From: Methanothermococcus sp. Ax23 | GTDB lineage: Archaea; AGJL01; Methanococci; Methanococcales; Methanococcaceae | DNA: 64,000 nt | Assembly: GCF_049075655.1 (NCBI RefSeq) | Contig: NZ_CP157522.1 | Coordinates: 1,280,001-1,344,000, forward strand | Direction: 5' to 3' | Shown here: positions 437-63,832 of the stretch, in pieces | How positions within the stretch are numbered: the first letter of the stretch is position 1 | How the letters are laid out: the number at the start of each line of letters is the position of its first letter | The notes under the pieces: model-generated | What the model saw: the letters and a program-made list of their open reading frames with translations, nothing else | Databases searched by the model: none | What the model was told of the DNA's origin: nothing | Program-made: the position numbers and the translations under genes

Positions 437-2008
437 ATGTCAAAGATACTTATAACTGATGCTATTCATGATGATGCAATTGAAATATTAAAAAACGTTG
501 GCGATGTAGAAATAGCCACGGGTTTAACGCCAGAGGAGTTAAAAGAAAAAATAAAGGATGCAGACGCTATTGTTATTAGAAGTGGAACAAAACTTACAAA
601 AGATATAATCGACGCAGCTGAAAAATTAAAAGTTATCGCAAGGGCAGGTGTTGGAGTAGATAATGTTGATTTACAGGCAGCAACAGAAAAGGGGATTATA
701 GTAGTTAATTCACCGGATGCTTCATCAATATCAGTAGCAGAATTAACAATAGGATTCATGCTCTCAGCTGCAAGAAATATTCCCCAAGCAACTGCCTCAT
801 TAAAGAGAGGCGAATGGGATAGAAAATCATTTAAAGGTGTAGAGCTCTACGGGAAAACCCTTGGTATTGTTGGATTGGGAAGAATAGGACAGCAAGTGGC
901 AAAAAGGGCTAAGGCTTTTGGAATGAATATTGTAGGATATGACCCATACATACCAGCAGAGGTTGCGAAAAATATGGGTATTAAATTAATGGATGTGAAT
1001 GAATTATGTCAGGTAAGTGATTTCATTACGCTACATGTCCCATTAACTCCAAAAACTAAACATATCATTAGTAAAGAACAAATTTCATTAATGAAAAAGA
1101 ATGCCATAATTGTAAATTGTGCAAGAGGTGGCTTAATTGACGAGGAAGCCCTTTATGAAGCTTTAAAAGACAAAAAAATAAGAAGTGCGGCACTTGATGT
1201 ATTCGAACAGGAGCCACCAAAGGACAACCCGCTGTTGGAGCTAGACAATGTAATAGGAACTCCACATCAGGGAGCTTCAACCGTGGAAGCTCAGAAAAGT
1301 GCTGGAACAATCGTAGCTGAACAAGTTGTAAAGATATTGAAAGGAGAACCTGCTGAAAATGTTGTAAATCTTCCTATGCTACCTATGGAAAAGATGAGTA
1401 AATTAAAACCATACATGATACTTGCAGAGAAAATAGGCAATATGATAATACAATTACTGGACAAATCGATAGAAAAAGTAGAATTAACATACATGGGTGA
1501 GCTCGCAAAAGAAGATACCGAAATGATAAAAAGGTCATTTTTAATGGGAATCTTATCACCAATATTACTTGCAGGAGTTAATTTAATAAATGCACCGACA
1601 ATAGCAAAGAACAGAAATATAAAGATTGTAGAAGGAACCGTATCAGAGAGCGATTATGGAAATGCCATAAAAATTATAGCAAAAGGAAAAACAGAAGAAA
1701 TTTCAATAGTAGGGTCATTAACAGATGGCAGGCCTGTTCTTCGTGAAATAAATGGGTATAAAGTAGATATTAAACCAGAAGGAATTATCTGCGTGATTAA
1801 ACACATAGATAGACCCGGTATGATTGGTAAGGTTGGTCTATTACTTGGGGACTGCGGAGTAAATATTGCAGGGATGCAGGTTGGAAGGAAAGAACCTGGC
1901 GGAGAAAGTATAATGGTGCTTAATGTGGACCATATGATTCCAGATGATGTTATAGAAAAACTAAAAAAACTTGAAAATATTAAGGATGCTAAGGTTATTG
2001 ACTTATAA
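437..2008 (+). CDS. serA: D-3-phosphoglycerate dehydrogenase
   Basis: RAGVGVDN, GLGRIG, TPHQGAST motifs and C-terminal ACT domain. Confidence 0.97.
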   Translation: MSKILITDAIHDDAIEILKNVGDVEIATGLTPEELKEKIKDADAIVIRSGTKLTKDIIDAAEKLKVIARAGVGVDNVDLQAATEKGIIVVNSPDASSISVAELTIGFMLSAARNIPQATASLKRGEWDRKSFKGVELYGKTLGIVGLGRIGQQVAKRAKAFGMNIVGYDPYIPAEVAKNMGIKLMDVNELCQVSDFITLHVPLTPKTKHIISKEQISLMKKNAIIVNCARGGLIDEEALYEALKDKKIRSAALDVFEQEPPKDNPLLELDNVIGTPHQGASTVEAQKSAGTIVAEQVVKILKGEPAENVVNLPMLPMEKMSKLKPYMILAEKIGNMIIQLLDKSIEKVELTYMGELAKEDTEMIKRSFLMGILSPILLAGVNLINAPTIAKNRNIKIVEGTVSESDYGNAIKIIAKGKTEEISIVGSLTDGRPVLREINGYKVDIKPEGIICVIKHIDRPGMIGKVGLLLGDCGVNIAGMQVGRKEPGGESIMVLNVDHMIPDDVIEKLKKLENIKDAKVIDL

Positions 2009-2095
2009 TTGACTTATTAACAGCGAATCCAAGATTCTTATTAGAATAATTATTTTTTATTTTATTTTTTTCAATTTAATTTTCAACTAACTAAA

Positions 2096-2521
2096 ATGGT
2101 GGTAAATATCAACGAAATTATAGCTGGACTTGTGATAGCATTTTTATATGGTGTTGGCACATTTTTTGCAAAAATAGTGTCTGAAAAGGACCCATTTTTA
2201 CAGTGGATAATTGTTAATATCGTTGGTATTATATTATGTATGGCCATAATTGCAAAAGAACCCCAAAGAATATACCAACTTCACGGAAAAATACTTTTAT
2301 ATGGGATAATTTCTGCTGTAATGGTTGTAGTTGGTAGCCTGCTTTTGTATTATACATTGCACAAGGGAAGGGCAAGTATAGTTGTGCCACTGTCATCAAT
2401 AGGTCCAGCAATTACTACAATATTAGCAGTGATTTTTCTAAAAGAGCATTTGTCTGCTTTTCAAATATTTGGGATAGTGTTAATAATTGTGGGAATTATA
2501 TTAATTTCGTTAAACAGTTAA
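2096..2521 (+). CDS. EamA/DMT family membrane transporter
   Basis: 141 aa, about 5 hydrophobic helices, ASIVVPL...LAVIFLKE pattern. Confidence 0.85.
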   Translation: MVVNINEIIAGLVIAFLYGVGTFFAKIVSEKDPFLQWIIVNIVGIILCMAIIAKEPQRIYQLHGKILLYGIISAVMVVVGSLLLYYTLHKGRASIVVPLSSIGPAITTILAVIFLKEHLSAFQIFGIVLIIVGIILISLNS

Positions 2522-2607
2522 AAAACACATATCAAGAAGTATCTAAAAAATACATAAAAAAGAAAAAAGAAAATAATAAATCTAATTTAATATAATCATT
2601 ATATCAA

Positions 2608-2850
2608 TTATAATTTCAATAACTTTTTAGCCCCCTGAGCTCCAAGCTGTAATTTTAGTGCATTTAATATTTCATTTACATCATCCATATCTTCCGCATC
2701 TTCCATTGCATTTTGAAATATCTCTCTTTTACTCGGCTCTACAAGACCTATTAAATATTCTACTGTGGATACTAATTCTATATATCTGCCTTCTTTTTGA
2801 GCCTGAGCTCGAACTTCTTCAATGGTCTTTTTTATATTTTCAGATACCAC
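2608..2850 (-). CDS. Small hypothetical protein
   Basis: 80 aa ORF with GGTGA RBS and TTTATATA box upstream on the minus strand. Confidence 0.75.
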   Translation of the reverse strand: MVSENIKKTIEEVRAQAQKEGRYIELVSTVEYLIGLVEPSKREIFQNAMEDAEDMDDVNEILNALKLQLGAQGAKKLLKL

Positions 2851-2911
2851 TGTATCACCATGCTTTTAATTTTAATATTTTGTAATTTATTAATATATAA
2901 AATTTTGTTTT

Positions 2912-2949
2912 TTGATATATTCCGTAGGAGTTGATATATTCCGTAGGAG
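2912..2949. repeat. 19-bp tandem duplication TTGATATATTCCGTAGGAG x2
   Basis: Exact copies at 2912-2930 and 2931-2949. Confidence 0.9.
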
Positions 2950-2972
2950 CTCGGAAGGTCGCAACTTTTTAT

Positions 2973-3296
2973 TACGATAAACCGCCGAGAAAGCCAACGA
3001 TTTTAATCGTTATACAAAACATAGTTTTGTAAAATCTCTTATGAGATTGGATGAGAGGCGGACATTATATCGGCTAGTAAGTAGTAAAATATAAATATGT
3101 GAAGATTAGTAGTAAGTAACGCTACCAGTCCAAGTTCTAATGGGTAGGGTTAGTGAAAACTCTACCGCTGGTAGTGGTTGAAAGTGCATAGCGTAGCCCT
3201 GAACCCATTAATGGGTAGGGGTAGTGGGTTTGGCCACCCATGTAGGGTTAAACCCTACTAATGAACCCCACGATTTTAATCGTGGGAGTAGGTCAG
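2973..3296 (+). mobile_element. Non-autonomous MITE derived from the tnpB element family of 20976-22447
   Basis: Left end nearly identical to 20976-21068; right end and omegaRNA nearly identical to 255-360; preceded by TTAT, ends in TCAG; no ORF. Confidence 0.92.
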
Positions 3297-4045
3297 AGAG
3301 ATTTAGCAATTTCTTCCACTTTCTTATATACTTCATTATTTTCATCTATATCAAACAGAGGTTTGCCTACTAAATCATATTTTGATATTTCTTCATTATA
3401 GGGCAATTTCCCTATTAAATTTAACCCCAATTCTTCGGCGTTTTTCTCAACTATATCTTTGGTTTCATCATTTACTTTATTTGCAACAACACATATATCT
3501 TTGAATTTTATTTCGAGGTCATTCGCTAGTTTTTTTATTCTTTTAGCAGTCCCTAACCCTCGCTTTGAAGCATCACTCACCACTATCATGGTATCTACAT
3601 TTTGAGTGGTTCTTCTACTCAAATGCTCCAAGCCTGCTTCCGTATCTATAACCACATAATCATAGGATTTTGCAAGATTATCTATAATCTGCCTTAACCA
3701 GTTATTCACACTACAATAACAACCACTTCCTTCGGGTCTCCCCATAACAAGCAAATCAAAGTTCTCTGTTTCAACCATAATTTCATATATTCTTCCCAGT
3801 AAATAATCCTGTTTTGATATGCCAGAAGGCAATTTATCATCAGCCACTAACTGTTTTAACTCTTCTCTTATATCCCCAATAGTCCGTTCTACTTCAACGC
3901 CAAGAGTTTCGGGGAGATTTGAATCGGGGTCAGCATCAACAACAAGCATATTGTGCGTCTTTTTTGATAATGCTTTTACAAGTAATGTGGAAAACATGGT
4001 TTTACCAGTTCCTCCTTTTCCGCTTATTGCTATTATTTTGGTCAA
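3293..4045 (-). CDS. cooC: CooC/AcsF nickel-insertion ATPase (CO dehydrogenase maturation factor)
   Basis: Deviant Walker A GKGGTGKT, GCYC motif, DTEAGLEH. Confidence 0.92.
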   Translation of the reverse strand: MTKIIAISGKGGTGKTMFSTLLVKALSKKTHNMLVVDADPDSNLPETLGVEVERTIGDIREELKQLVADDKLPSGISKQDYLLGRIYEIMVETENFDLLVMGRPEGSGCYCSVNNWLRQIIDNLAKSYDYVVIDTEAGLEHLSRRTTQNVDTMIVVSDASKRGLGTAKRIKKLANDLEIKFKDICVVANKVNDETKDIVEKNAEELGLNLIGKLPYNEEISKYDLVGKPLFDIDENNEVYKKVEEIAKSL

Positions 4046-4247
4046 ATTATCACCAATTACCTACATATATACATACAAAAAAAGTTTAAGACATATAACG
4101 AATATATTACATTGAACAATATCATCTAAATCAATATATATTATATATTTATTACATAAATATATTGGCAATGAATATATAGGACACACATAAGAATAAT
4201 ATATTTATTTAATAGTCGTTTTTTAAAAATGATATTGGGGGGCTCTT

Positions 4248-7200
4248 ATGTATGAGAGGATGTTGCAAGAAGAACTTTCAAAATTATTTAAAGAATATTG
4301 TGAATTGGATTGGAAAAAGAAATCTGAGGCAGCCCGAATATTAGGGTATATTAATGATGTTAATGAAATTAAGAAAATACAGGAACAAATTATAAAACTA
4401 GCTCAGGATAAAAACTTAGCTACAAGAGTAAATCTAATGAACTCTATAAAGAAGCTCGTTTTAGACCGCCACATTATCAATGAAGATATCTTTGTTTTAC
4501 TCTATTTTTGGGCCAATTCCTTCAACACCACAACATCAGAATTTGCCAAACAAATTATAAACTCCTTAAATGTGAATGTGATTGTCGACTACATCCTCTC
4601 ATTATCCATAAAACTTTATTCTTCCAATCCTTATGAAGTAGCATATGCCATGGCATCCTTGGGATTGATATCAACAGTTACCCCTGAACACTTAACAAAT
4701 ACCCTCCCTGAGATTGTATTAATATCTAACAGTTATAAATACAAGATACTTCAAGTGCTTGCTATTGAAATACTTGAAGAATTTAAAACATTGGATAAAG
4801 AATATCTAATAAGTTCATTTTTTTTAATTTATAATATATATAAAAATAATAAACAGATTGGCGACTTCAATATTGAATCTATGAATGGAAGCGAATTATT
4901 TGAATATATGTTATGTATATATTTTAAAAAAAATGCAAGTAACGAAAATATTTTAAATATAATAACAATGTTGGATTATGTTGATTTACTTACAAAATCC
5001 TTTGCACTGATCACATTATATACTCATGCCGATGTTTTGTATCGGATATTAAAGGAGGATAAGAAATTAAGCAATTACCTGATAGATGAAATAATAAGCT
5101 CTTTTAAAAATCCTGACCGGATGATTAGGCTTTCATCCATGTTTTTGTTTATAAAGTTGATATTCTTTGATAAAATATATATTAAAGATGAATACTTAGA
5201 TATGTTTTTTGACAAAATCCTTGAAAATTTCAATGATAAATATATTGTAAAAGGATTTTCTCTTGAAATATTATACTACCTATTAAAAAATACAGAATCG
5301 AAATATATTAAAAAGAAAGTATCTGAGGTTATTGATAAAATTGATTTAAAAAGTATAATGAATGAAGGACATTTATGCTATTATAATGGGTTATATTTGG
5401 CATATGAATTAAAAAAATATGAATGTTTCTCAGCAACATCTTCTCCTAATTTTAATATGGCTCTTGTGGGGGAATTTAACACATTGGAAACTGTTGAATA
5501 TTATGATTTAATTAAATCTATTAATATATCTGTGAAGCGAAAATACTGGCTTAGTGGATGGTTGGATAGATACTACGCTGGAAAATATTTAGGCAATGCA
5601 ATATATGCAAGACCCGGTTATGCATCCAATATGTTTGATACAATAGACACCCTATTAGGTGATAACAACTATATGGTAAGATGCATTGGAATTTGGATTT
5701 TAAGACTTACCACTGAGTTAGGTATTGAACCGCCAACTGATATTATCATTAAATCAATATCATTGCTTGATGACTGGTTCTATGAATGCAGAATTGAATA
5801 TATGTTATTTTACAACATATTATTAAAAAATTTTCCGCATATTTTGGAAGACAGCAGAATTAAACAAAAACTCATTTCTGCAATAGCCTCAAAACATCTA
5901 ACGGACAGCAATAAACTTGTAAGGAATGTTTGCACAATGATATTAAAAAATAAAGAATTATTATATAGGAATTCAGAAATTGAATTTTTTAAAAATTACT
6001 ATGACTTGTCAGTTCCTGAAAGAATTGAATTACTTGAAAAATATTGGGAAATCCCAGAGCTGAGAAAAGCTGTAATTATGCTCGTTAAAGTAAGATTAAA
6101 ATATTATATTAAAAAAGGAGATTATACTACCATTGAAATGGCTTTAAAAAAAATATTTGATGGGAAACTCCATAAAGAAATAGGTCATATACTGTATGAA
6201 ATTGTACGATTGAAAGAAAAATCTGAAATGGCTAAAAAGATATTAAATGCATTTAAAAACAAATATCCAAAACTTCCAAAAGATTTAGAGAAAACATTAT
6301 TCCATAATATCAATGAACCAATAATTACCATTAGAACCCATAAACTTAAAGAACTATTGTTATTTGTCAAAGAGGGAGTTACAATAAGCTATGAGTTATT
6401 AAATAAGGTTAAAGAGATAGCAATATACGAATGTGTTAGTGAGCGAAACCTAAATCTTGCATTATCTATACTTGGAGAAATAAATGAACTTGAAAGTATG
6501 GCCATAATTAAGGAAAAAAGGGAATTAATAGAATATCTGGAAAATAATCCATTAAATCTTGACAAAATAAAAAGAAAAGATTTGAAAAGATTGGATTGGA
6601 AGGATTATTGTATTAAAATAGCATACATTCCCACGGAAGGAATAATGGATATATTTGCAGAGGATAATGTAAATGAGGTTGTAGAAACAGTTGTATCTCT
6701 ATTGCACTTTGAAGATGTTGTAATTTTAAAGGTAAGAATTATAGATTTATTAATTGAAGAAATTTCCAAAAATGAAGAATTATTAAATATATTGTTGGAT
6801 AATAAAGAAATATTTGCTATATTGTTAAAACTATATTTATCTAAAGGATATAGTTTTTTATCAAAAAAAGCACTAACCTTACTAGAAAAATTATCGCTAA
6901 AAAGAGATAACTGGTTAAGAAGTAATTTAATACATTATTTTAAAAGTAATGATTTTAATTCTCAAAAATCGTTAAATAATATATTATACCTCCTAACTGA
7001 AAATATCTCCACATATGTTAAAATAGAAATTTTGAATTCTATAAAATATGCATTAGAAAATAAATTAATTGAATGTAATAAAGATGCTGCATATACTTTC
7101 GTAGACATTATGATGAATACCGACAGTAATCAGCCATGGACAATATTTAAAAACGCAGTTGATATTATTTTTTCATGTCCGTATATAAAAACTGATGAAA

Positions 7201-7379
7201 AACTTCTAAGTAGCATTGTCGAGAAATTTATAGGTCTTGCGGACATTGTAGAAGAAGGAAAGAAAGACTATATACTCATTTACCTAAAAAAACTATTAGA
7301 AATGAGTGGAGTTAACATTATAGAACTTGATGAGGAGGTTATTGAAAAACTTCTTGAATTTGAAAATAGGAATTTATAA
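4248..7379 (+). CDS. Large HEAT/ARM-repeat (alpha-solenoid) protein, function unknown
   Basis: 1043 aa with recurring HEAT-like segments (LLGDNNYMVRCIGIWIL, LTDSNKLVRNVC, FKNPDRMIRLSS). Confidence 0.7.
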   Translation: MYERMLQEELSKLFKEYCELDWKKKSEAARILGYINDVNEIKKIQEQIIKLAQDKNLATRVNLMNSIKKLVLDRHIINEDIFVLLYFWANSFNTTTSEFAKQIINSLNVNVIVDYILSLSIKLYSSNPYEVAYAMASLGLISTVTPEHLTNTLPEIVLISNSYKYKILQVLAIEILEEFKTLDKEYLISSFFLIYNIYKNNKQIGDFNIESMNGSELFEYMLCIYFKKNASNENILNIITMLDYVDLLTKSFALITLYTHADVLYRILKEDKKLSNYLIDEIISSFKNPDRMIRLSSMFLFIKLIFFDKIYIKDEYLDMFFDKILENFNDKYIVKGFSLEILYYLLKNTESKYIKKKVSEVIDKIDLKSIMNEGHLCYYNGLYLAYELKKYECFSATSSPNFNMALVGEFNTLETVEYYDLIKSINISVKRKYWLSGWLDRYYAGKYLGNAIYARPGYASNMFDTIDTLLGDNNYMVRCIGIWILRLTTELGIEPPTDIIIKSISLLDDWFYECRIEYMLFYNILLKNFPHILEDSRIKQKLISAIASKHLTDSNKLVRNVCTMILKNKELLYRNSEIEFFKNYYDLSVPERIELLEKYWEIPELRKAVIMLVKVRLKYYIKKGDYTTIEMALKKIFDGKLHKEIGHILYEIVRLKEKSEMAKKILNAFKNKYPKLPKDLEKTLFHNINEPIITIRTHKLKELLLFVKEGVTISYELLNKVKEIAIYECVSERNLNLALSILGEINELESMAIIKEKRELIEYLENNPLNLDKIKRKDLKRLDWKDYCIKIAYIPTEGIMDIFAEDNVNEVVETVVSLLHFEDVVILKVRIIDLLIEEISKNEELLNILLDNKEIFAILLKLYLSKGYSFLSKKALTLLEKLSLKRDNWLRSNLIHYFKSNDFNSQKSLNNILYLLTENISTYVKIEILNSIKYALENKLIECNKDAAYTFVDIMMNTDSNQPWTIFKNAVDIIFSCPYIKTDEKLLSSIVEKFIGLADIVEEGKKDYILIYLKKLLEMSGVNIIELDEEVIEKLLEFENRNL

Positions 7380-7415
7380 TTTTTAATATTATGTTATAAT
7401 TTAATATTATTTTAG

Positions 7416-8037
7416 AGAGTGTGTCTAAAATCGAATGATAAATATATACTAATAAAAAAATATGGTGGCAAAAAGTGGATTCTAGAAAATTCTTAAAAAA
7501 CTTTGGAGTTTTGATTACGAAAGGACGTTTATTAATTCAACAAAGTTTCCAAATAATGTAGGTGAATTGGAGTGAGCAAAGCGAACGGAGGGCTATAAAA
7601 ATCCCTTTGGGATTTTCATTCAATCGGTAAGATACATGCTATAACTCGCTACGATTTAGAAAATAAAACATTATATCTCACATCCATGATTAAAAATCAG
7701 ACTTGGAATTTGCTGATGGGAAAGGATATTTTTTGGTGATGGAGAATAGGGAAATAAAAAGACATTGAATAAAATCTTATCGGATTTTATAACCCGCTCT
7801 CTTTGCTCGTGGTTGAACAATATCGTTAAATCCATCTAAACAATAATAAAGAAAACGTAAAGATAGGTAGACATGTAAAGGATTCTTCAGAGCTTTAACC
7901 AATAGATTCAGAGATAAATTAAATACTTCCTTAGTATTAACTACCATCACTCTTATCGCTATAAGAGTTTATATGTACTCGTTAATCATGTTGCTAAGAT
8001 ATACTATATAATACCTGAGCTATCTTAGACACACCCT
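7416..8037 (+). mobile_element. Degenerate IS5-like element or MITE
   Basis: 13-bp inverted repeats AGAGTGTGTCTAA (7416) and TTAGACACACCCT (8025), one mismatch; no intact ORF; family assignment is tentative. Confidence 0.7.
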
Positions 8038-8080
8038 GCCTAATCCATAATGAAAATAAATAAAAAAATGAGATGAAAAC

Positions 8081-8962
8081 ATGGAATGTATAGAATATGA
8101 AATAAAACATGCGATAGAACATATGATGGAAACTAATTATCCGAGAAAAAAATTATGGGATATGGATTCAAAAGTTCCGGAGTTAATAAGAGGAATTAGG
8201 GCAGGAGATGATGCAGTAGTGATAGGAAAAAAGGTTATAAACATGGAAGGTCCCTATCCTTTAAAATTGGGTTCAAAAACTGCCTTAATTCATACATCAT
8301 GCGATGTTGTGGCAATGGGTGCAAAACCATTATATGCCATGGATGCAATTCAGGCGCAGAATGAAGAAGAAATAAAAATGGCAGTAGATGGACTAAAAAA
8401 GCAATCCATAGGTCTAAATATACCTATTGTTGGTGGAAATACACAAACAGAAAAGGAATTAAAATCCTGTGTGAGTGTAGTGGTATTTGGAGAGCTCATA
8501 TGTGATAAGGTAATTACTGATGGCGGAGCTCAGGCTGGAGATACAATAATTATGCTCGGTCATCCTGTGGAAGGAGATATTGGAGGTAGAGTCCAGAAGG
8601 CAAAAAATAAATTTGACACATTTCTGAAAATTTTAGAAAATGATGTGGAAGTCCATGCCTGCAAAGACGCTTCAAGGGGTGGATGGCTTTGTAACATACT
8701 TGAAATGCTTGCAAAGGCAAAAAAAGGTATTAGGATAAATGCAATCCCTTATCCAAGAGCTACAAGATATTTGGGAACTTATCTTGTGTGTATGGATGAG
8801 GATAATTTAAATGACGCCATAAATATAGCAATCGACAACAGATGTCCTATTATTCCATTTGGAAAAATAACAGAGGAAAGAACCTTTAAAATAGGGAATA
8901 AAGAATACATCAGTGAAGAAAAAATGAACAATATTATAAAAGAATTTCCCTATAAATACTAA
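8081..8962 (+). CDS. AIR synthase-related (PurM/ThiL/HypE fold) protein
   Basis: AGDDAVV, DVVAMGAKP, IVGGNT, CKDASRGG motifs. Confidence 0.85.
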   Translation: MECIEYEIKHAIEHMMETNYPRKKLWDMDSKVPELIRGIRAGDDAVVIGKKVINMEGPYPLKLGSKTALIHTSCDVVAMGAKPLYAMDAIQAQNEEEIKMAVDGLKKQSIGLNIPIVGGNTQTEKELKSCVSVVVFGELICDKVITDGGAQAGDTIIMLGHPVEGDIGGRVQKAKNKFDTFLKILENDVEVHACKDASRGGWLCNILEMLAKAKKGIRINAIPYPRATRYLGTYLVCMDEDNLNDAINIAIDNRCPIIPFGKITEERTFKIGNKEYISEEKMNNIIKEFPYKY

Positions 8963-8970
8963 TTTAATAT

Positions 8971-9906: not shown

Positions 9907-9972
9907 TATTGAATCACCCAACGCTATTAAATAAATTATTACTAATTTACCACCTGCAATCTTGGACTTAAT

Positions 9973-10470: not shown

Positions 10471-10631
10471 CTTTTCACCCTCTTAATTACATACGCCCAT
10501 ATATATTTTCATTTAAATATATATGTTTTAATATAAAAATATATATCATAAAACTGTGTAATTAAAAAATATTTTAAAATACATACATATAAATATATGC
10601 CATATTTAGAAATAGATATAAAATAGTGATT

Positions 10632-14245: not shown

Positions 14246-17200
14246 ATGATAAATACGATATACGATATTTTAAAAGAGAATGGCATCACTGAGCTCAGAC
14301 CTCCACAAAAAAAAGTAATCGAAGGAGGGCTATTAAATAAAAATAAAAATTTTTTAATCTGCATACCTACGGCATCGGGGAAAACACTTATTGGTGAGAT
14401 GGCATTTATAAACCATCTTTTAAATGAGAATAAAAATCCCACAAATAAAAAAGGATTGTTCATTGTTCCTTTAAAGGCACTTGCAAATGAGAAATACGAA
14501 GAATTTAAGGAGAAATATGAAAAATACGGTTTAAAAGTAGCATTGTCCATTGGAGATTTTGATGAAAAAGATGAACTAAGCGGATATGATTTAATAATCA
14601 CGACAGCGGAAAAGCTCGATTCACTGATTAGGCACAATATAGGGTGGATAAATGACGTATCTGTTGTAGTTATAGATGAAATCCATTTAATAGGAGATGA
14701 TGGGAGAGGGGGAACCCTTGAAATTCTACTTACAAAACTGAAAAGCAAATACGACACCCAAATAATTGGACTATCTGCCACCATAGGAAATCCCGAAGAG
14801 TTTGCCAAATGGCTAAATGCTGAGCTGGTTATGGACGAGTGGAGACCTGTTGAATTAAGAAAGGGAGTAGGGTATGACGACAAAATCATATTTATTGATG
14901 AGGATGGAAATGTCATAGAGGAATACGTTATTAATGGAACATCTAAAAACAGCATGTTTAATATTGTAGTGGATAGTGTTTTAAAGGACGGCTCATGCCT
15001 GATATTTTGCAATTCAAAGAGAGGGGCAGTTAATGAAGCAAAAAAATTAAATTTGAAAAAATATTTATCAGCTGATGAAGTAGCGGAGCTCCGAAATTTA
15101 AAAGAGGAAGTCCTAATGGCACTTGACCCGCCAACAGAAACCTGCAAAACCCTTGCGGAATGTATTGAAAGGGGTGTAGCATTCCATCATGCAGGTTTAA
15201 CCTACGAACAGCGGAAAATTGTTGAAGATGGATTCAGAAAAAAGCTGATAAAGGTAATTTGTTGCACTCCGACACTCTGTTTAAATGCAAATACTGAGAT
15301 ATTACAAGAAAGTGGGTTTAAAAAGATTACAGAATTGAATAAAAATGAAAAGGTATTTGCATTGTGTGGAAATAAAATAAAACCGGTGGATTGTTGGAAA
15401 GTCCATAAGACCCCGCAACATGAGTATAATATTGTTGTAAAAACAGCAAATGGGCTAAAAATTACCACAACTCCTAATCATTTGTTCTTAGTTAAAAAAG
15501 GAAAAGATACTTGTGAAAAAGAAGCAAAGGATTTAAAAATAGGGGATTATGTGGCTACTACTGATAAAATAGTAGTTGAAGAAAGAGATATCGATTTATC
15601 CTATGGGGACATTTATTTCATTGGATATTTTATAGGGGATGGATATACTGGCGTTATTGAAAAAAATGTATTTAGGGGCAGTCCAGATATTGCATTTAAT
15701 CCAAAATCCTCGCCAAATTTCGACGACTCCAAATTACATAAAAAATACTTCTTAAAGCATAGGGAAATGGAAGGTGTATCTCATTATATATATTCAAAAA
15801 AACTAAGGAAAGTATTCAACAAATTGAACATGCTAACCAAGAATAACAAGAATATTGATACATTTTACAATCTTCCATTGGAAAAATTTTCATACTTTAT
15901 TGCAGGGTTGTTTGATAGTGATGGATACATTAATGCCAATAGAAAGGAAATTGAATTCGATTCAATATCGGAAAATCTAATCAAAAAACTACAATTGGGA
16001 TTATTGAGGTTTGGAATACATAGCACCATTAGAAAAAGAAAAGGAAAAGTTATGAAACTTGACAAAACCTTCGGGTTTTGTAAGTCAGCGAATCCAAAGG
16101 ATTCGCTTCGATCACCAACGAATTATAAAGAATATAAAAGTAGGGACATTTATAAACTAATAATTGGTGATTTTATAAGTGTAAAAAGATTTTATGAAAA
16201 TATTCCACTGAGGCACAAGGAAAAAAGAAGAAAATTGGAGGAAATCGTAAAAAGTAAGGAAATTGCTAAAATGTGGTGTGATTGTGGATTTAGCACTGAT
16301 TTAACTATGTTTAAGCCGAGAACAGAAAGTCAGAGGAACTTGAATAAAAAGCGTATAAACTTGCTTTTTGAACTATTAAATGGGAAAAAATTGATTATGA
16401 ATTACAAGAGCTATTATTCAAAGAGAAAGAATTCTCATTTTGAATTCATAACAAGAGAAAATGTGGGAGGAAATAAGAAAGGAGTATATTATTCCCTAAA
16501 TAATAAAGGAAAGATTTTAATGAATCTTCTTAATAAAAATATAAAAAATAAAGAGAATTTAGAAGAAATGTATGATTTCTTAACAAATCTTGAAAAATGT
16601 CCAATTTGTGGTAAGCCACTCTACAAAGAAATAAGATACAGTTGGAAAAAAGAATATTATGATGAAGATATTTATTGGGATGCAATTAAAGAAATTAAAA
16701 AAATAAAAGTAAATGACAAATATGCTTATGACATAGAACTGCCTGATGATGGGACAAATGACCATTATGTTGTGGCGAATGGATTTATTGTGCATAACTC
16801 TGCGGGACTAAATTTACCTTGTAGAAGGGCAATCGTAAGGGATTTAAAGAGATTTTCCAGCAGAGGTATGGCCCCAATTCCAAAAATGGAAATTCATCAG
16901 TGCATTGGAAGAGCTGGACGGCCAAATTTAGACCCCTATGGTGAAGGAATAATATATGTAAGCAATAGGGAGAACCCTGAAAGCATTGAAAATGCAAAAA
17001 ACTATTTAATTGGAAATGTGGAGGAAATTTACTCAAAACTATCTAATCAGAAGGTTTTAAGAACTCATATACTTGGGTTAATTACCACAGGTGAGGTTAA
17101 AAACAAAAATGATTTAGAGGAATTTATAAAAAATACATTCTATGCTCATCAATATCAAAATACTGAAAAAATTTTGGAAAATATTGATGAAATAACCAAT

Positions 17201-43193: not shown

Positions 43194-44024
43194 TTATTTT
43201 ATTGGAATCAAACGCCAAATATAATTTGAAATCTTTTTAGTTAATTCATTAAGGATATTATCAATGTTTTTATTTTCAAATATTTGGTTAAAATTTTCAA
43301 TATTATCAAATTTTACTTCAATATTTTCATTGTTATTAGATGATTTTATTTTTACAACAACAAAATCGTTATTTAAATGTAAATTTATATATCCGTATAT
43401 TTCACTAAGAAGAAAATTAAAACCTTTTTCTACATTATCAACGCCTGTGCTTGAATATAAATCGTAATGAACATTTCTATGGCATTCCCTACATAATGTT
43501 ATTAAATTATCAAAATTATTATTCTTTGAATTTTTATCAATGTGATGTATTTCTAAATAAGAATATCCACACTTATCACATTTATATTGGTTTTCTAAAA
43601 TTAGATTGTCTTTCACATCCTCAGAAACAATCCTAAATTCTGATTCTACATCTTTCTCAATCTCTTCCATAGTCATTTTAGCAAGTTTATAGGATAAAAC
43701 ATATTTTAGTCTCCGTAATACTGCATCTTTTATAAAATCCTCGTCATAAATCAACATATTTTCTGATTTTGAATATATTGTAATAACTAATTTACCCTCT
43801 GAAATTTTTTGAATAGTTGTAAAAAGGAAATTATCGTATTCATCAATCTTATCGGAAATATGGGTCCTATAATGGCATTGTTTGCATAGTATTTTAAAAC
43901 TTCCATTTTTTGAAATGTGTATTTGCAAATATTCATGTTCGCATATATTGCATTTATATCCATCCCTTTCTAAAATTTTTTTTCTAATTCTGGAAGGAAG
44001 TCCTTTATTTTTTACATTGCTCAT
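43194..44024 (-). CDS. Protein with two HNH endonuclease-like modules
   Basis: RDGYKCNIC..LQIH..LCKQCH and CDKC..LEIHHID..N..NLITLCRECH. Confidence 0.8.
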   Translation of the reverse strand: MSNVKNKGLPSRIRKKILERDGYKCNICEHEYLQIHISKNGSFKILCKQCHYRTHISDKIDEYDNFLFTTIQKISEGKLVITIYSKSENMLIYDEDFIKDAVLRRLKYVLSYKLAKMTMEEIEKDVESEFRIVSEDVKDNLILENQYKCDKCGYSYLEIHHIDKNSKNNNFDNLITLCRECHRNVHYDLYSSTGVDNVEKGFNFLLSEIYGYINLHLNNDFVVVKIKSSNNNENIEVKFDNIENFNQIFENKNIDNILNELTKKISNYIWRLIPIK

Positions 44025-44910: not shown

Positions 44911-45839
44911 TAGTGTGGGTCATATTACACCCTAACCTCTAAGACTTTCATATAAGGATAACCTCTGGTAATTAGATTATATAATGCTAAAACCTGTGCA
45001 GAAGCCACTGCACAGAAGCAGAATATTTTTTTACGAACATAACCCTTAACATTTGTCCAATACTTATTCATAAATCTATTCTTTAATATCGAATTGGTAT
45101 GTTCTATTTTAACTCTTATCTTAGAGACTTCTTTCGGAAGTTTCTTTTTGTTTTTCTTACCTAATCTCCGTGGATTATGGGCAGTTATTAGTTCGTTTTG
45201 GTATAACTCCTTAGCTTTTTTTTAAATCTTTTGAATCATAGCCCGCATCTGCGCAGGATTTTTTGGTAGATACTAACAATTTATCAGCCACTTTAACGTC
45301 ATGAGTATTTGCCGCGGTAAATTCTGCTCTCAATGGTATTCCTCGCTTATCCACTGCTAAGTGTAATTTAAAGCCTTTGAATATCCCTTCACTATTGTAT
45401 CCTATTTTTCCATCTTTGTCCATTTCATCCCTTATTGGAGTACTATCATATATTGACCATTCAGGATTATTCAGTTCAATATATTTATCACCTAATAAAG
45501 TAATTATTGCATGCAATTCTTCATCAAGGGATTTTTTCCATCTATCGATGGTTCTCCTACCAGGACAAGATTTAAATCCCAATGTTTTTAAAATCTGAGG
45601 ATTATTTTGTAAGTGTAATACTAACGCTCTATTTGAGTGTATGCCTTTTAAAAAGGCATACACTAATAGTTTAAGCCTCAACTCTAAATTATATCCTTTC
45701 CTCCCTACCTTTCTTCGTTTAGGGATTCTATTAATTAAATCTGATGTAATTATCTTATTTACCACTTCCTCAGCCTTCATAATATCGTCTTTTTTATAAT
45801 ATTATATTTAGTATAGGTTATATATTTTGACCCATACTA
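44911..45839 (-). mobile_element. DDE insertion sequence (IS5/IS4-superfamily-like) between cbiN and cbiQ
   Basis: Inverted repeats TAGTGTGGGTCA and TGACCCATACTA; 9-bp target duplication AAATAATTA (44902-44910, 45840-45848). Confidence 0.9.
44930..45780 (-). pseudogene. Frameshifted DDE transposase
   Basis: YDSTP, GFKLH, ADAGYD in 45211-45780; RVKIEHTN continues in the +1 frame after an A8 run near 45216-45223; probable second shift near 45030. Confidence 0.8.
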
Positions 45840-54675: not shown

Positions 54676-54735
54676 AATTACATAATAAAAACTAAGGTGA
54701 TACAAATAAATAATAAAAATAGATAAATGGATTAA

Positions 54736-57188: not shown

Positions 57189-57212
57189 ACAGCATTTTTA
57201 TGTGGTGATGGT

Positions 57213-58124: not shown

Positions 58125-58162
58125 AAAGGTTATAATATAATATCTATCAATTTGGTGATAAT

Positions 58163-60868
58163 ATGAAAATATCAGTAATTGGAACAGGATATGTTGGATT
58201 AATTCAAAGTGTAGGTTTGGCAGAGTTTGGATTTGATGTAGTGGGTATAGATATAGACGAAACTAAGGTAAAACATCTCAATGGGGGTAAATGTCCATTG
58301 TATGAAGATGGGTTAGAGGAACTCCTGCAAAAACATGTTGGAAATAAATTGAAATTTACAACATCCTACGATGAAATAAAAGATTCAGATGTTATATTTT
58401 TATGTGTGGGAACTCCGCAGGATGATGAAGGAAATGCAGATTTAAGATTTATATATTCGGCAACCGAATCCATTAAAAACCAGTTGGATGATAGCTATAA
58501 GATTTTAGTTATAAAATCCACCGTGCCCATTGGAACAAATAGGAATATTAAGGAATTATTAAAAGATTATAATGTTGATGTAGTTTCAAACCCAGAATTT
58601 TTAAGAGAGGGGATTGCAGTTTATGACTTTTTTAATCCTGAAAGAATTGTATTAGGATTTGAAAATTTAAACAATGAAAAACCAATAGACATTATGAAAG
58701 AGATATATAGTCATTTTGATAATAATATTCCATTTATAATTACAGATTGGGAAAGTGCTGAGATGATAAAATACGCATCCAACGCATTTTTGGCAACCAA
58801 AATTTCCTTTGTAAATGAGCTCTCAAAATTAGCTGATAAAGTTGGTGCAGATATAAAAACCATAAGTGAGGCTATGGGAATTGATAAAAGGATTGGAAAC
58901 AAGTTTTTAAACGCTGGAATCGGATATGGCGGGAGCTGTTTCCATCCTGATGAAGTGTTATTTGTGGATTTTGGAAAAGGTTTAGAGTGCATGACATTTA
59001 AGGAGTTATTTGATGAGCTCAGTAAAGACAGTAATAGGATGGTAAAAATATTATCCATTGATGAAAATTTGAAATTGGATTTGGTGGATTTAAAATTGAT
59101 TACAAAAAGGGATTATTCCGATGATTTAATTGTTTTAAAAACGTCGATGGGAAGGGAGCTAAAAATAACAAAAGACCATCCTGTTGTTGTGATGAATGAA
59201 AATAAATTAAACATTAAATTAGCGGAAGATATTAAAGAAGGGGATGAAATAGCACTACCTAATGGAGAATTTAATAACAATAATAATATAATTACAATCG
59301 ATGTTTTAGAAGAAATAAAAAATACTCCATTAATTGAAAACACTTATTTAAATAATAAAGATATGGTGTTGAATGAGTTTGAGAATATAAGAACTCATTT
59401 ATCAAATAAATATGTTCATGATGTAAAGAAGAATGGGACTGTAAGAGCAAAGGATATGCTACCATTAAGAAACTTGTTAAATAAATACAATTATAATTCA
59501 AATAGGTTATTCACTGTAAGAAGCAAATCTACAACAATCCCCTCTAAAATTAAAATAGATAAAGATTTTGCTCGGCTTATTGGATATTATTTAGCGGAAG
59601 GTTGGATTTCGGAGGACAATGGAAGAAATAGAGTTAATAGAAAAAGAATTAGTTTTTCATTCGGAGGTCATGAGGATGAATATATTAACGATGTTAAAAA
59701 TATATTGAGTAAATTGGATATAAATTATATTGAAAAAGTTGGGAATGGTTCTCATTCTATAGTAATATCTTCAAAATTGTTAGCATATATCTTTGAAGAG
59801 GTATTAAAATGTGGAAACAATTGCTATAATAAACAAATACCACCACAAATATTCAATTCACCAGAGGATATTAAATGGGAGTTTTTAAAAGGTATTTTAA
59901 GAGGAGATGGAGGCATAGTTAGGTTGAACAATAATAAAAATTTAAATATCGAATATGGAACGGTAAGCAAAAAATTAGCAAATTCCCTAATGATATTATT
60001 GCAATCTTTTGGCATTACAACATCATTAAAAAGATGCTACAACAACAAAAGCACAGTATTAACCTATATCATAAGAATAAACGGATTAAACCAAGTCAAA
60101 AAAATCGGAGAATTGTTTGGAGAAAAGTGGAATAACTATAAAGAAATCGCAGATAATTATCAAAGAAATATAAAACCTACGGGCTATAAAAAGTTCGACA
60201 ATTATGCAACATTAAAGGTTAAATCTATTGAAAGAGAACATTACAATGAAGAAGTTTATAGTGTGGAAACAGACAATAATTTATTAATATCATCTTATGG
60301 AATGTTAATTCATAACTGCTTCCCAAAAGACGTCAAAGCGCTGATAAAACAGTTTGAAAACAATAATATATCTCCAAAATTAGTTAAAGCGACAGATGAA
60401 GTAAATGAAGAGCAAATATGCTGGTTTTTCAATAAAATTAAAAATTATTATAATGGTAATTTAAATCAAAAAACTTTTGCAGTTCTTGGATTGGCATTTA
60501 AACCCAATACTGATGATTTAAGGGAAAGTAGGGGAATAAAATTAATCGATTTATTATTGAAAAGCGGAGCAATAGTTAAGGGCTTTGATTATGTTGAAAA
60601 AGCAAGAGAAAATACCATCAACAGATATAAATTGGATAAATCAAAAGCATTTTATGGATATAATTTATATGTATTGGATGATTTATACGAAACCGTAAAA
60701 GATGCTGATGCAATTATAATAACCACAGAATATGATTTTAATAATGAAGATTGGGAAATGATAAAGAAGCTAGTTAAAAATAAAACCATATTTGATGGTA
60801 GGAATATCCTAAATGCCGATAAAATAAAAAAATTGGGATTTGAATATTATGGGGTTGGTAGGAAATGA
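58163..60868 (+). CDS. ugd: UDP-glucose 6-dehydrogenase containing an intein
   Basis: GTGYVG, NPEFLREG, GYGGS|CFPKD split by the intein, FKPNTDDLRES. Confidence 0.93.
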   Translation: MKISVIGTGYVGLIQSVGLAEFGFDVVGIDIDETKVKHLNGGKCPLYEDGLEELLQKHVGNKLKFTTSYDEIKDSDVIFLCVGTPQDDEGNADLRFIYSATESIKNQLDDSYKILVIKSTVPIGTNRNIKELLKDYNVDVVSNPEFLREGIAVYDFFNPERIVLGFENLNNEKPIDIMKEIYSHFDNNIPFIITDWESAEMIKYASNAFLATKISFVNELSKLADKVGADIKTISEAMGIDKRIGNKFLNAGIGYGGSCFHPDEVLFVDFGKGLECMTFKELFDELSKDSNRMVKILSIDENLKLDLVDLKLITKRDYSDDLIVLKTSMGRELKITKDHPVVVMNENKLNIKLAEDIKEGDEIALPNGEFNNNNNIITIDVLEEIKNTPLIENTYLNNKDMVLNEFENIRTHLSNKYVHDVKKNGTVRAKDMLPLRNLLNKYNYNSNRLFTVRSKSTTIPSKIKIDKDFARLIGYYLAEGWISEDNGRNRVNRKRISFSFGGHEDEYINDVKNILSKLDINYIEKVGNGSHSIVISSKLLAYIFEEVLKCGNNCYNKQIPPQIFNSPEDIKWEFLKGILRGDGGIVRLNNNKNLNIEYGTVSKKLANSLMILLQSFGITTSLKRCYNNKSTVLTYIIRINGLNQVKKIGELFGEKWNNYKEIADNYQRNIKPTGYKKFDNYATLKVKSIEREHYNEEVYSVETDNNLLISSYGMLIHNCFPKDVKALIKQFENNNISPKLVKATDEVNEEQICWFFNKIKNYYNGNLNQKTFAVLGLAFKPNTDDLRESRGIKLIDLLLKSGAIVKGFDYVEKARENTINRYKLDKSKAFYGYNLYVLDDLYETVKDADAIIITTEYDFNNEDWEMIKKLVKNKTIFDGRNILNADKIKKLGFEYYGVGRK
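58937..60316 (+). mobile_element. Intein (460 aa) with LAGLIDADG endonuclease at the catalytic Cys of Ugd
   Basis: Starts CFHPDE, block B TKDHPV, GYYLAEG and KGILRGDG, ends LIHN before Cys. Confidence 0.93.
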
Positions 60869-61845: not shown

Positions 61846-61867
61846 TTTATTAGATATTGGTGCTATA

Positions 61868-63832
61868 ATGTGCGGAATCAATGGGGTAATTAGATTTAAT
61901 GAAGATATTTCAAAGGATGAGCTCGAATCAATGAATAAGTCCATAAAACATAGAGGTCCTGATGATAATGGCATTTATATATTTAATTCCAAAAACCTTC
62001 GGTTTTTGTCCCCTGAAGGTTCCAAAAATTATTCCGTTGGATTGGGGCACGTGAGGTTGTCAATTTTAGATTTATCTGAAAAAGGACATCAACCTATAGG
62101 GTATGGTATTGAAGATGATAAAATTATATATAATGATAATGAGTTAGATGATGCCGATATAATTATCGTCTATAACGGTGAAGTTTATAATTATTTGGAA
62201 TTAAAGGAAAAATATGATTTAAATACTGAAACAGGAACTGATACAGAAGTTATTTTAAAGTTATATTATAAATTGGGCTTTGATTGTGTAAAAGAATTTA
62301 ATGGGATGTGGGCGTTTTGTATCTTCGATAAAAGGAAAAATTTAATTTTTTGTTCAAGGGATAGGTTGGGGCAAAAACCGTTTTATTATTATTTTAATGA
62401 AAATACTAATGAATTTATTTTCTCTTCTGAATTAAAGGGGATAATATCTGTTAAAGACATAAATAAAAAGGAAAATATTAACAAAGATGCCGTTAATCTA
62501 TATTTTGCACTTGGATTTATCCCATCCCCCCATTCAATTTACAAGAATGTTTTTAAATTAGAAGCCAGGCAAAATTTAATATTTGATTTAAATAGTAAAG
62601 AAATTAAAAAGAATTACTATTGGGAGCTCCCAAATTATAATCCAATTTATGATAAAAATAAATTAATTGAAGAAGGTAAAAAACTACTTTATGATGCCGT
62701 TAAACTAAGAATGCGTTCAGATGTTCCAGTTGGAGCATTTTTAAGTGGTGGTTTGGATAGCTCTTCTGTTGTTGGAATTATGAGTAAATACACTGATTTA
62801 AAAAACCTACATACTTTTTCCATAGGCTTCGAAGGAAAATATGATGAAACACCATATATAAATGTAGTTAAGGATTATTTTAAAACAAATCACCATCATT
62901 ATTATTTTAAAGAGGAGGATTTTGTAGAGCTCATTGATAAATACGGCTGGATTTATGATGAGCCATTTGGTGATTACAGTGGATTTCCAACATATAAAGT
63001 TTCTGAGATGGCAAAACAATTTGTAAGTGTTTCATTAAGTGGTGATGGAGGAGATGAAATTTTTGGAGGCTATCGATTTCATCTGATTAGTAAAAGAATA
63101 GAATATTTAAAAAAAATCCCTGTATCAGTTAGAAAGATATTTTTAAACATGTTGAGTAATAATTTACTAAAAAAAAATTCCATATTGTATTTAATTAGAG
63201 AAGCAGTTAAATTATCCCTAATTGAAAATAATGAAAAATTTTACTCAGAATTATTCGATGGAGATTTTATTATTTCCGATGAGGGCAAAAGTTGGATAGA
63301 AAAAAATTTAAAATACTGCTTAAATAAAACAGATAATAATTTATCTGAATCCCTTAGAATTTTTGATTTATTATTTAGAACATTATCTGATAATTTTTTA
63401 GTTAAGGTGGATAGGGCATCGATGGCAAATGCATTAGAGGTTAGAAGTCCCTTTTTAGATTACAGATTTGCAGAATTTAGTCAAAAAATCCCAACAGAAT
63501 TTAAAGTCGATTTCTTTAAAACAAAAAAATTAATGAGGGAAATTATTAAGGATATTTTGCCAGATGAGATAGTTAATAGAGGAAAGGGAGGTTTTGAACC
63601 GCCATTGGATATGTGGATTTTGAATGAAAAATATGATAGTATTTTGGAAAATGGAATTGCTATTTTAGAAGACATTGGGTTGGAGCAGTTGGTTAAATTT
63701 TATAAAACTAAAATCTTTATGTCAAATCAAAGATTTGTCAAACCAAAGGTAAAGAAAAATAATAAGCTTTATAGTATTTACAAGATTAGGTTGTTTTTGT
63801 TTGCTAAATGGTGGGAGAGATGGATAAGGTAA
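61868..63832 (+). CDS. asnB: Asparagine synthase-like glutamine amidotransferase (probably glycan amidation)
   Basis: MCGI, HRGPD, NGEVYN, LSGGLDSS, GDGGDE, KVDRASMA; lies in a nucleotide-sugar cluster. Confidence 0.92.
   Translation: MCGINGVIRFNEDISKDELESMNKSIKHRGPDDNGIYIFNSKNLRFLSPEGSKNYSVGLGHVRLSILDLSEKGHQPIGYGIEDDKIIYNDNELDDADIIIVYNGEVYNYLELKEKYDLNTETGTDTEVILKLYYKLGFDCVKEFNGMWAFCIFDKRKNLIFCSRDRLGQKPFYYYFNENTNEFIFSSELKGIISVKDINKKENINKDAVNLYFALGFIPSPHSIYKNVFKLEARQNLIFDLNSKEIKKNYYWELPNYNPIYDKNKLIEEGKKLLYDAVKLRMRSDVPVGAFLSGGLDSSSVVGIMSKYTDLKNLHTFSIGFEGKYDETPYINVVKDYFKTNHHHYYFKEEDFVELIDKYGWIYDEPFGDYSGFPTYKVSEMAKQFVSVSLSGDGGDEIFGGYRFHLISKRIEYLKKIPVSVRKIFLNMLSNNLLKKNSILYLIREAVKLSLIENNEKFYSELFDGDFIISDEGKSWIEKNLKYCLNKTDNNLSESLRIFDLLFRTLSDNFLVKVDRASMANALEVRSPFLDYRFAEFSQKIPTEFKVDFFKTKKLMREIIKDILPDEIVNRGKGGFEPPLDMWILNEKYDSILENGIAILEDIGLEQLVKFYKTKIFMSNQRFVKPKVKKNNKLYSIYKIRLFLFAKWWERWIR

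Follow-up and report, generated by a model that had tools for sequence, protein, structure and literature searches.

Several systems are known in which a short sequence motif fills a whole genome. The DNA uptake sequences of Neisseria (DUS) and the uptake signal sequences of the Pasteurellaceae (USS) occur about once per kb, lie in coding DNA where they are tolerated, even at the price of altered peptides, and come in dialects, and drive suffices to account for them; no uptake specificity is, to our knowledge, known in archaea. In E. coli, a repair led by a short palindrome (Dcm and Vsr) raises CCWGG-related words genome-wide, and very short patch repair is the one proven repair route enriching a short palindrome that we know of. 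The closest described system is the cyanobacterial highly iterated palindrome HIP1 (GCGATCGC), which, according to the available parts of two reports, is a short perfect palindrome, 15- to 300-fold over-represented, found in every reading frame as well as in intergenic DNA, with about one copy per gene (PMC5861425, PMC4390886). HIP1 raises transformation efficiency and has been proposed as an uptake or Chi-like signal, in the accessible portions of the sources concerned (bioRxiv 10.1101/2024.09.10.611283; PMC13756078). Why some genomes are filled with one short palindrome is a question unsolved in the 30 years since HIP1, and the link to uptake or recombination was proposed only recently. Here we describe the abundance of the palindrome GAGCTC in a stretch of 64,000 nucleotides (the window, positions 1280001-1344000 of chromosome C1) of the archaeon Methanothermococcus sp. 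Ax23, and in its genome as a whole (G000; chromosome C1 of 1,662,948 bp and contig C2 of 7,732 bp, GC 31.9%).

GAGCTC is HIP-like by anatomy and by evolutionary behaviour. It has in common with HIP1 the perfect palindrome, the degree of over-representation, the spread over frames and intergenic DNA, the copy number per gene, a conservation past neutral expectation and a word that varies by lineage, here the 6-mer in Ax23 and the 8-mer GGAGCTCC in the related genome G010. In distinction to HIP1 it is archaeal, its core is 6 bp and not 8, and it is restricted to five of the 23 genomes of its family, while HIP1 is present in most of the cyanobacterial phylum. The likeness fails or stays undecided for the cognate orphan methyltransferase, which was not found for GAGCTC, and for the periodicity. 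Open-access PubMed Central and bioRxiv yielded no account of GAGCTC or GGAGCTCC being hyperabundant in Methanococcales, nor of any highly iterated palindrome from an archaeon, in line with the initial annotation of the window, which was made from the letters alone and knew of no equivalent in Methanococcales. GAGCTC is the first archaeal counterpart of HIP1 that we could find in the open-access literature covered.

Abundance of GAGCTC as a DNA-level feature

The window contains exactly 74 copies of GAGCTC (Table 1), a number reached by none of 100 dinucleotide-preserving shuffles (mean 3.16, standard deviation 1.70, largest 7). The initial annotation had counted at least 74 with roughly 4 expected, and every coordinate it listed is correct. 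Six sites (2637, 2805, 2947, 18205, 53772 and 53821) are outside open reading frames (ORFs) of at least 120 amino acids, including the four (2947, 18205, 53772 and 53821) which had been named as lying between genes. The last site spans 62927-62932.

Genome-wide there are 2089 copies in 1.67 Mb (2085 on C1 and 4 on C2), which is 1.25 sites per kb. The observed/expected ratio of 16.75 under a mononucleotide model heads the hexamer list, and under Markov orders 1, 2 and 3 the ratios are 19.7, 13.1 and 4.9, in each case rank 1 among 3596 words. At the maximal order (order 4) the ratio is 1.60 and the rank 10, a conservative value because this model conditions on the motif's own 5-mers. GAGCTC is in this respect a short perfect palindrome over-represented genome-wide by at least about 15-fold, as HIP motifs are. 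The host signature is present also on C2, presumably a plasmid, with 4 copies against 0.35 expected. From a practical point of view, SacI sites every 0.8 kb matter for the design of cloning and transformation. Outside the hexamer the information is at most 0.21 bit per position, with G preferred before and C after, and GGAGCTCC accounts for 331 of the 2085 chromosomal sites. As this flank information is low and flank identity equals background, the idea that the motif is a piece of a longer dispersed repeat (repetitive extragenic palindrome or miniature inverted-repeat transposable element) was rejected.

Crude gene calls (1568 genes, 84% of the chromosome) gave a density of 1.36 sites per kb in coding DNA and of 0.68 per kb in the remainder, where the composition (26% GC) predicts about 0.04. 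The three frames hold 1073, 613 and 221 coding sites, against 80, 83 and 26 in synonymous-codon shuffles (thirty, within each gene, with protein and codon usage of the gene kept). These shuffles retain about 10% of the sites, 189 (largest 220) out of 1907 observed, and a shuffle of codon order leaves 111. Glu-Leu dipeptides are spelled GAG-CTC in 1073 of 3865 cases (28%), GAA-CTC in 56 and GAG-CTT in 54, and 39% of all CTC codons are preceded by GAG. The corresponding odds ratio of 18 gives a scaled advantage of about 2.9 per site (its natural logarithm). In orthologues of the motif-poor genome G005, GAGCTC is found at one of 795 aligned Ax23 sites. The enrichment, present in all frames and between genes, is a feature of the DNA and not an effect of codons, peptides or repeat elements. 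A count no higher than in codon-preserving shuffles would have spoken against this and was not observed, and codon bias had from the start been thought unlikely to explain sites in all frames and between genes.

Sites are spread along the chromosome with near exponential spacing; distances of 20-50 bp are 1.5-fold too frequent, those below 20 bp are too rare, and 11 gaps exceed 5 kb where 3.9 are expected. The number per 50 kb has a mean of 62.7 and a variance of 54.9, and the dispersion index among non-repeat genes is 0.92. HIP motifs are quasi-periodic at 10-90 kb; for GAGCTC no periodicity was detected at 5-200 kb by a spectral test simpler than the published one, the strongest peak (53.6 kb) being reached in 152 of 500 bin shuffles. 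The density dips to 0.5-0.6 per kb in the 100 bp before start codons and is lowered to 0.67-0.89 per kb just past stop codons.

Mobile DNA is poor in the motif. Multi-copy sequence, defined as at least 85% identity over at least 300 bp, amounts to 93.7 kb and contains 14 sites, or 0.15 per kb against 1.32 elsewhere, despite its higher GC content of 37%. Four of these 14 sites are in two duplicated blocks of 4.9 kb, which are probably rRNA operons, while about 40 blocks the size of insertion sequences (IS) have no GAGCTC at all. Genes with a homologue in G005 have 1.51 sites per kb, those with one only in the rich relatives G012 or G010 1.38, those without homologue in the compared relatives 1.11, and repeat genes 0.22. 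In this sense GAGCTC is, in these genomes, a strong marker for telling resident DNA from recent arrivals. The HIP1-like reading first given to the window (all frames, intergenic sites, more than codon bias, missing from recently mobile DNA) was borne out. An equal density in core and acquired genes, which would have spoken against it, was not found. The contrast expected between the two classes is clear for multi-copy mobile DNA; strain-specific genes (1.11 against 1.51 per kb for shared ones) follow it only in part. As a separate observation, C1 carries about 115 repeat blocks with about 94 kb of multi-copy sequence, some 40 of them the size of an IS or tnpB element (0.8-1.6 kb), e.g. at 21135-22361 and 28467-29828 of the window.

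Conservation, turnover and occurrence in Methanococcales

Alignment of Ax23 genes with sequence from three relatives gave 588 orthologues in G012 (800 kb compared), 904 in G010 (1.2 Mb) and 583 in G005 (800 kb). Ax23 and G012 are 86.1% identical at nucleotide level and 71.8% at third codon positions, and have in common 616 of 803 aligned GAGCTC sites. Where Glu-Leu is conserved, GAGCTC is unchanged in 352 of 412 cases (85%), compared to 64% for GAATTA, 67% for GAACTT and 11-41% for seven other codon pairs. Ax23 writes 33.7% of its Glu-Leu dipeptides as GAGCTC, and G012 32.3%. Between genes, 33 of 48 sites are preserved (69%), compared to 39% for hexamers in general and 58% for those matched in GC. 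The conservation ends at the edge of the hexamer: identity at third positions beside conserved sites is 0.71-0.75, equal to the background of 0.72, and no local effect of sites on the divergence of their neighbourhood was seen in this measure. GAGCTC is, as the HIP motifs, conserved between relatives beyond neutral expectation.

Sites were also compared three ways in 390 genes. Of the presence patterns in the order G000, G012, G010, 111 was found 132 times, 110 302 times, 101 19 times, 011 15 times, 100 100 times, 010 89 times and 001 232 times. The retention is 132/151 and 132/147 (87-90%); it is 48-68% for seven of eleven control words and reaches 75-91% for the other four, one of which overlaps the motif and one of which has n=6. 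Sites unique to a lineage (100 in Ax23 and 89 in G012) are far above the confirmed losses (19 and 15). By estimate, and not by a fitted model, each terminal branch had roughly 50-65 gains and about 55 losses, near equilibrium. A site in G010 is four times likelier where Ax23 has one (0.344 versus 0.086), which fits partial inheritance or shared permissive positions.

Sites also changed proteins. Of 619 GGAGCTCC octamers in aligned G010 genes, 228 read GGA-GCT-CCN (Gly-Ala-Pro); Ax23 has GAP at 59 of these positions and elsewhere GVP (13), GKP (10), GNP (9), GTP (7), AAP (6), GEP (5) and others. At 640 aligned positions Ax23 has Glu-Leu and the poor G005 does not, and the reverse is true of 416. 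These alignments show that a directional force still acts per site, keeping old sites, making new ones and altering amino acids. The word it reads is two-fold symmetric and 6-8 bp long, its specificity varies by lineage, and in close relatives the force is missing or overridden. At the positions of Ax23 sites, CTT and CTC are in excess in G005. A reading of such positions as ghost sites was dropped, since two RpoB columns read GAACTT in G005, in G004 and in the outgroup G016 alike; because these genomes share the word, GAACTT is suggested by the two cases to be a precursor of GAGCTC more than a remnant. Jumps from GAATTA to GAGCTC, considered as a mark of recombination, gave three and one cleanly polarised cases which a fast decay following loss could explain, and were not used.

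Comparison of 31 Methanococcales genomes showed that the enrichment is patchy. Five are rich: G000 (2089 sites), G012 (2070), G010 (1645), G003 (1321, from a 90% complete assembly) and G013 (1515, of a different genus from Ax23); the same five are the rich ones among the 23 family genomes. Other genomes of the genus of Ax23 have 4-115 sites, and those of family f2 49-229, so that GAGCTC richness is limited to a few Methanococcaceae lineages. G010 has a dialect of its own, with GGAGCTCC making up 1259 of its 1645 sites, about 590-fold above expectation; in the remaining rich genomes the octamer makes up 13-16% of the sites. In 4-kb RpoB loci the sites of G013 differ in position from those of Ax23, bar one common to nearly all genomes. 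A placement of G008 inside the rich clade was left undecided, with 91% identity in one protein for it and 83% in SerA against it.

Some relatives avoid the word. G005 has 4 GAGCTC in 800 kb against 81 expected, but avoidance specific for SacI gave way to an avoidance of AGCT at large (observed/expected 0.11), as AAGCTT is also scarce (0.04, 12 copies in 800 kb). G008, G007 and G002 are low in both GAGCTC and AAGCTT, which may reflect an AluI-type restriction pressure. Within a single genus, related words are enriched in some genomes and purged in others. Restriction-site avoidance concerns the same class of words with the opposite sign, GAGCTC being accumulated and not removed. One family with five rich genomes, with neutral and purging ones, and with 6-mer and 8-mer dialects is a natural experiment for gene finding. 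On a side note, Ax23 itself avoids the 4-mer palindromes GATC (0.03), GTAC (0.07), ACGT (0.10), GCGC and CGCG (0.13) and CTAG (0.14) and many 6-mers, such as CTCGAG (8 copies) and CTGCAG (0.04 of the shuffle expectation), while TGCA is over-represented (1.67). This palindrome avoidance points to a long history of restriction pressure.

Possible causes of the accumulation

The explanation that we favour, with a probability of roughly 0.4, is that a putative DNA-binding protein of two-fold symmetry drives the spread of GAGCTC by biasing recombination or DNA exchange. The exact two-fold symmetry of the motif, its sharp 6-bp boundary and the 6-mer and 8-mer dialects suggest a sequence-specific reader that is a homodimer. 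Such a protein would recognise GAGCTC, or GGAGCTCC in the lineage of G010, and its specificity would evolve or pass between lineages. Motif-bearing alleles would be favoured as donors or survivors in recombination, either gene conversion among polyploid genome copies or DNA exchange between cells, and the motif would spread site by site in a molecular drive. Uptake sequences of Neisseria and Haemophilus operate in this manner, and the same is now suggested for HIP1. Methylation would apparently not be required, and incoming selfish elements (IS, tnpB, inteins) would be too recently resident to have gained the motif. Cells of Methanococcus are highly polyploid and have active gene conversion, which would make such a drive easy to realise. 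Drive is favoured because sites cost protein changes while most synonymous opportunities stay unused, because the distribution resembles independent events without positional pattern, and because incoming selfish DNA is without the motif. With the genetics, natural transformation and extreme polyploidy of Methanococcus, biased conversion or uptake is directly measurable.

More tentatively, GAGCTC, or GGAGCTCC in one lineage, may be a self-DNA tag of some Methanococcaceae, read without methylation by a horizontally exchangeable dimeric protein which biases uptake, recombination or retention among the many genome copies. If so, archaea would have a first self-recognition system of the uptake-signal or Chi-like kind, and the study of HIP1-type motifs a tractable model. 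GAGCTC resembles DUS and USS in its density of about one per kb, in being spread out through coding DNA including peptide changes, in its dialects and in its scarcity in newly arrived DNA. Uptake sequences are, however, asymmetric 9-12-mers, which in Neisseria form inverted pairs at terminators, whereas GAGCTC is a palindrome of 6-8 bp, with only the 1.5-fold pair excess at 20-50 bp, and its density dips past stop codons.

Several points weigh against a drive by biased recombination or exchange. Conservation and turnover cannot separate it from ordinary per-site selection. Sites are not spaced more evenly than at random, and they show no excess past stop codons, unlike Neisseria uptake sequences. 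The density of strain-specific genes, already 1.11 per kb, is awkward if acquisition is slow. One-mismatch variants of GAGCTC, which a sloppy uptake receptor might enrich, have observed/expected ratios of 0.37 to 1.2 (two are near 0.05 because they contain other avoided words). The rich state may have arisen by one origin with losses or by several origins, both being possible because a tree of RpoB' (FastTree, one protein) groups G010 with G000 and G012, with the poor clade as sister and G013 beside the poor genus g3, but SerA of G010 (80% identity to Ax23) is no closer than that of poor genomes (79-83%). As to a tie to DNA exchange, profile searches of five genomes, rich or poor (G000, G010, G013, G005 and G016), found neither ComEC (PF03772) nor DprA (PF02481), a further difference from the DUS and USS systems. 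Archaeal transformation relies on other, poorly known parts. Methanococcus maripaludis, which is naturally transformable, falls in a poor group.

A driver gene was also sought, and no credible one was found among the candidates from syntenic gaps against G005 (19, then 11), which counts against the same explanation; the candidates tested do not follow the trait, as a gene tracking the enrichment should. By sequence reading the gap candidates were IS copies or ordinary enzymes; beside the IS copies the list comprises an acylphosphatase-like protein, an RlmI-like RNA methyltransferase, a SulP permease, a glycosyltransferase, a dTDP-glucose dehydratase, a copper ATPase, an intein host and a winged-helix ATPase. 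The winged-helix ATPase was rejected, being present also in the poor groups g3, g4 and g5. This gene (C1:654951-656204) encodes an ATPase with a C-terminal region that reads as winged-helix-like, 70-98% identical across Methanococcales, and was not found in eight small or incomplete assemblies of g1, the genus of Ax23, namely G001, G002, G004, G005, G006, G007, G009 and G011. A second HhH-GPD glycosylase, seemingly absent from rich genomes in a five-genome search, was rejected when a search of all 31 found it in the rich G012 and G003 and missing in several poor ones. Most relatives encode two HhH-GPD glycosylases, but G000, G010 and G013 a single one; what they are missing is a paralogue of roughly 220-240 amino acids, in a pattern that is not that of the motif.

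Direct selection on each site, without transmission bias, is the next best explanation, though a doubtful one. GAGCTC would be bound by a nucleoid or chromatin protein, dimeric and abundant, or would label resident DNA as self for protection or for repair of the Chi type, and losing a site would do slight harm. The conservation of coding and intergenic sites well past synonymous controls, the strikingly uniform density along the chromosome and the enrichment of the plasmid all agree with it, unmarked mobile elements suit a role in distinguishing self from non-self, and Xu et al. 2018 concluded likewise for HIP1 from similar evidence, in the available part of that paper (PMC5861425). On the other side, many sites altered amino acids although just 28% of the Glu-Leu dipeptides, where the motif could be had synonymously, carry it, which fits a push per site better than a required density. 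There is no 5-200 kb periodicity, the spacing is no more even than chance, sister lineages do without GAGCTC or purge it, and no candidate protein follows the trait.

A repair bias linked to methylation, the mechanism first suggested for the window, is unlikely. Here an orphan methyltransferase for GAGCTC or AGCT would act together with a sequence-specific mismatch repair, of Vsr or Mig type, by which words close to the motif are turned into it. Very short patch repair as in E. coli needs a cytosine-5 methyltransferase and Vsr, and neither was found in Ax23. For the methyltransferase (PF00145) there are no matches in Ax23 and none over the family cut-off in G003, G010 and G012, although G013 has one; Vsr (PF03852), for which the control matched in E. 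coli, B. subtilis and Caulobacter, was found in none of the five profile-searched genomes, nor was NucS. Dcm and Vsr furthermore enrich their words modestly, and not by 17- to 590-fold. The T-for-C variants, which such repair should drain, do not appear specially depleted, with ratios of 0.81 (GAGTTC/GAACTC) and 0.60 (GAGCTT/AAGCTC) against 0.80-1.2 for most other variants, the expectations being inflated by the motif codons. In favour of methylation, HIP1 and alternative HIPs accompany cognate orphan methyltransferases in cyanobacteria, and the HIP1 effect on transformation is methylation-dependent, in the accessible parts of the respective sources (PMC4390886; bioRxiv 10.1101/2024.09.10.611283).

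Other methyltransferase families gave a mixed picture. Ax23 has two PF01555 genes (304 and 705 amino acids) and three PF02384 genes, all of unassigned specificity, and G010 has one PF01555 gene (453 amino acids) which is absent from G000, G012 and G013. G012 has for PF01555 nothing above a weak housekeeping-like match, and the PF02384 matches are type I subunits or weak. No methyltransferase of PF01555 or PF02384 is common to the five rich genomes, and no common PF02086 gene was found in a search that left out G012 and G013. The SacI-type restriction enzyme family PF09566 had no match in the five profile-searched genomes, but neither did its control, so that the result is uninformative. A published methylome of Methanococcus aeolicus PL15/Hp lists m4C at CTAG, m6A at GTNAC, GCACY and CGAG and an inferred m5C at ACGT, all assigned to genes, and in its available part no motif containing GAGCTC, with a method blind to 5-methylcytosine and in a strain outside the compared genomes whose GAGCTC content is not established (PMC10113651). 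According to the same part of that report, methyltransferases can evade annotation in this group, as M.MaeIII escaped the standard one (PMC10113651). The missing cognate methyltransferase, if confirmed, would mean that methylation is no general requirement for such motifs.

It is very improbable that the motif is a fossil, built in an ancestor by a process which has since stopped, with the present sites decaying. In its favour, none of the rich genomes yielded a driver gene, and some relatives lost or purged the motif. In an AT-rich genome in which GAG and CTC are disfavoured (25% and 7% usage), neutral decay of GAGCTC should outpace that of GAATTA, but it is slower (85% against 64% unchanged). 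The share of Glu-Leu written as GAGCTC is equal in G000 and G012, and lineage-specific sites exceed confirmed losses by far. That the abundance is an artefact, whether of codon usage or codon pairs, of peptide content or of base composition, can practically be discarded: the GAG-CTC frame holds 56% of the coding sites and the maximal-order ratio is only 1.6, but the order-4 model is made from the motif's own 5-mers, the shuffles that preserve protein and codon usage lose most sites, every frame, intergenic DNA and the plasmid are enriched, and the G005 orthologues keep next to none of the Ax23 sites.

Features of the window

Table 1. Positions of GAGCTC sites and of site-poor features in the window
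Feature	Position	Strand	Remarks
GAGCTC, single scattered copies	842..62932	.	74 copies, window count
GAGCTC starts, part 1 of 5	842, 1499, 2637, 2805, 2947, 8492, 8526, 10814, 10919, 14291, 15086, 17369, 17420, 17895, 18205		
GAGCTC starts, part 2 of 5	18631, 19914, 20511, 20689, 23223, 23605, 24160, 24484, 25808, 25842, 26096, 26497, 27019, 30423, 30555		
GAGCTC starts, part 3 of 5	31041, 31870, 32281, 32339, 32346, 32438, 34561, 34638, 34767, 35803, 36249, 37714, 38624, 39094, 40234		
GAGCTC starts, part 4 of 5	40520, 41469, 41694, 44186, 44419, 44500, 44622, 47342, 47369, 49862, 49901, 51246, 51358, 51517, 53772		
GAGCTC starts, part 5 of 5	53821, 54452, 54952, 55126, 55846, 57421, 58817, 59015, 61130, 61213, 61645, 61919, 62624, 62927		
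Site-free stretch of 5.5 kb	2953..8491	.	about 5 sites expected at coding density; among the longest gaps of the genome
ParA/MinD-type ATPase gene	3293-4045	-	within the site-free stretch 2953..8491
ORF of 1043 amino acids, no Pfam match, GC 27%	4248-7379	+	within the site-free stretch 2953..8491
Intein of Hel308-type helicase (splicing and LAGLIDADG domains)	about 15275..16961, in gene 14246-18061	+	0 sites; exteins 5
TnpB (OrfB_IS605 / Cas12f-like) element	21135..22361	+	0 sites; block multi-copy in the genome
Second TnpB element	28467..29828	+	0 sites; multi-copy
HNH endonuclease gene, GC 24%	43194..44024	-	0 sites
DDE transposase fragment	45211..45780	-	0 sites
Intein of UDP-glucose dehydrogenase (LAGLIDADG)	about 58973..60479, in gene 58163-60868	+	1 site, 59015, at the N-terminal edge

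The elements named as site-free in the initial annotation (tnpB, DDE, HNH, Hel308 intein, HEAT and nikMNQO) are indeed free of GAGCTC in the window, including the HEAT-like gene at 8971-9921 and both cbiM/Q/O sets, and so is a CobQ-type gene. For inteins this holds for the one in Hel308, but not for the second one, which has a site at its edge; the host gene of the latter encodes a UDP-glucose/GDP-mannose dehydrogenase. The long site-free stretch near the start of the window is likely foreign DNA, and the region of its large ORF and ParA/MinD ATPase may be an island derived from a plasmid or virus. At the other end of the window, an asparagine-synthase-like gene (61868-63832), with best outside matches of 64-76% identity in Woesearchaeota, Methanocaldococcus and Methanothermococcus, precedes a site-free stretch of 7.4 kb just past the window, and its region may be an exchanged glycosylation cluster.

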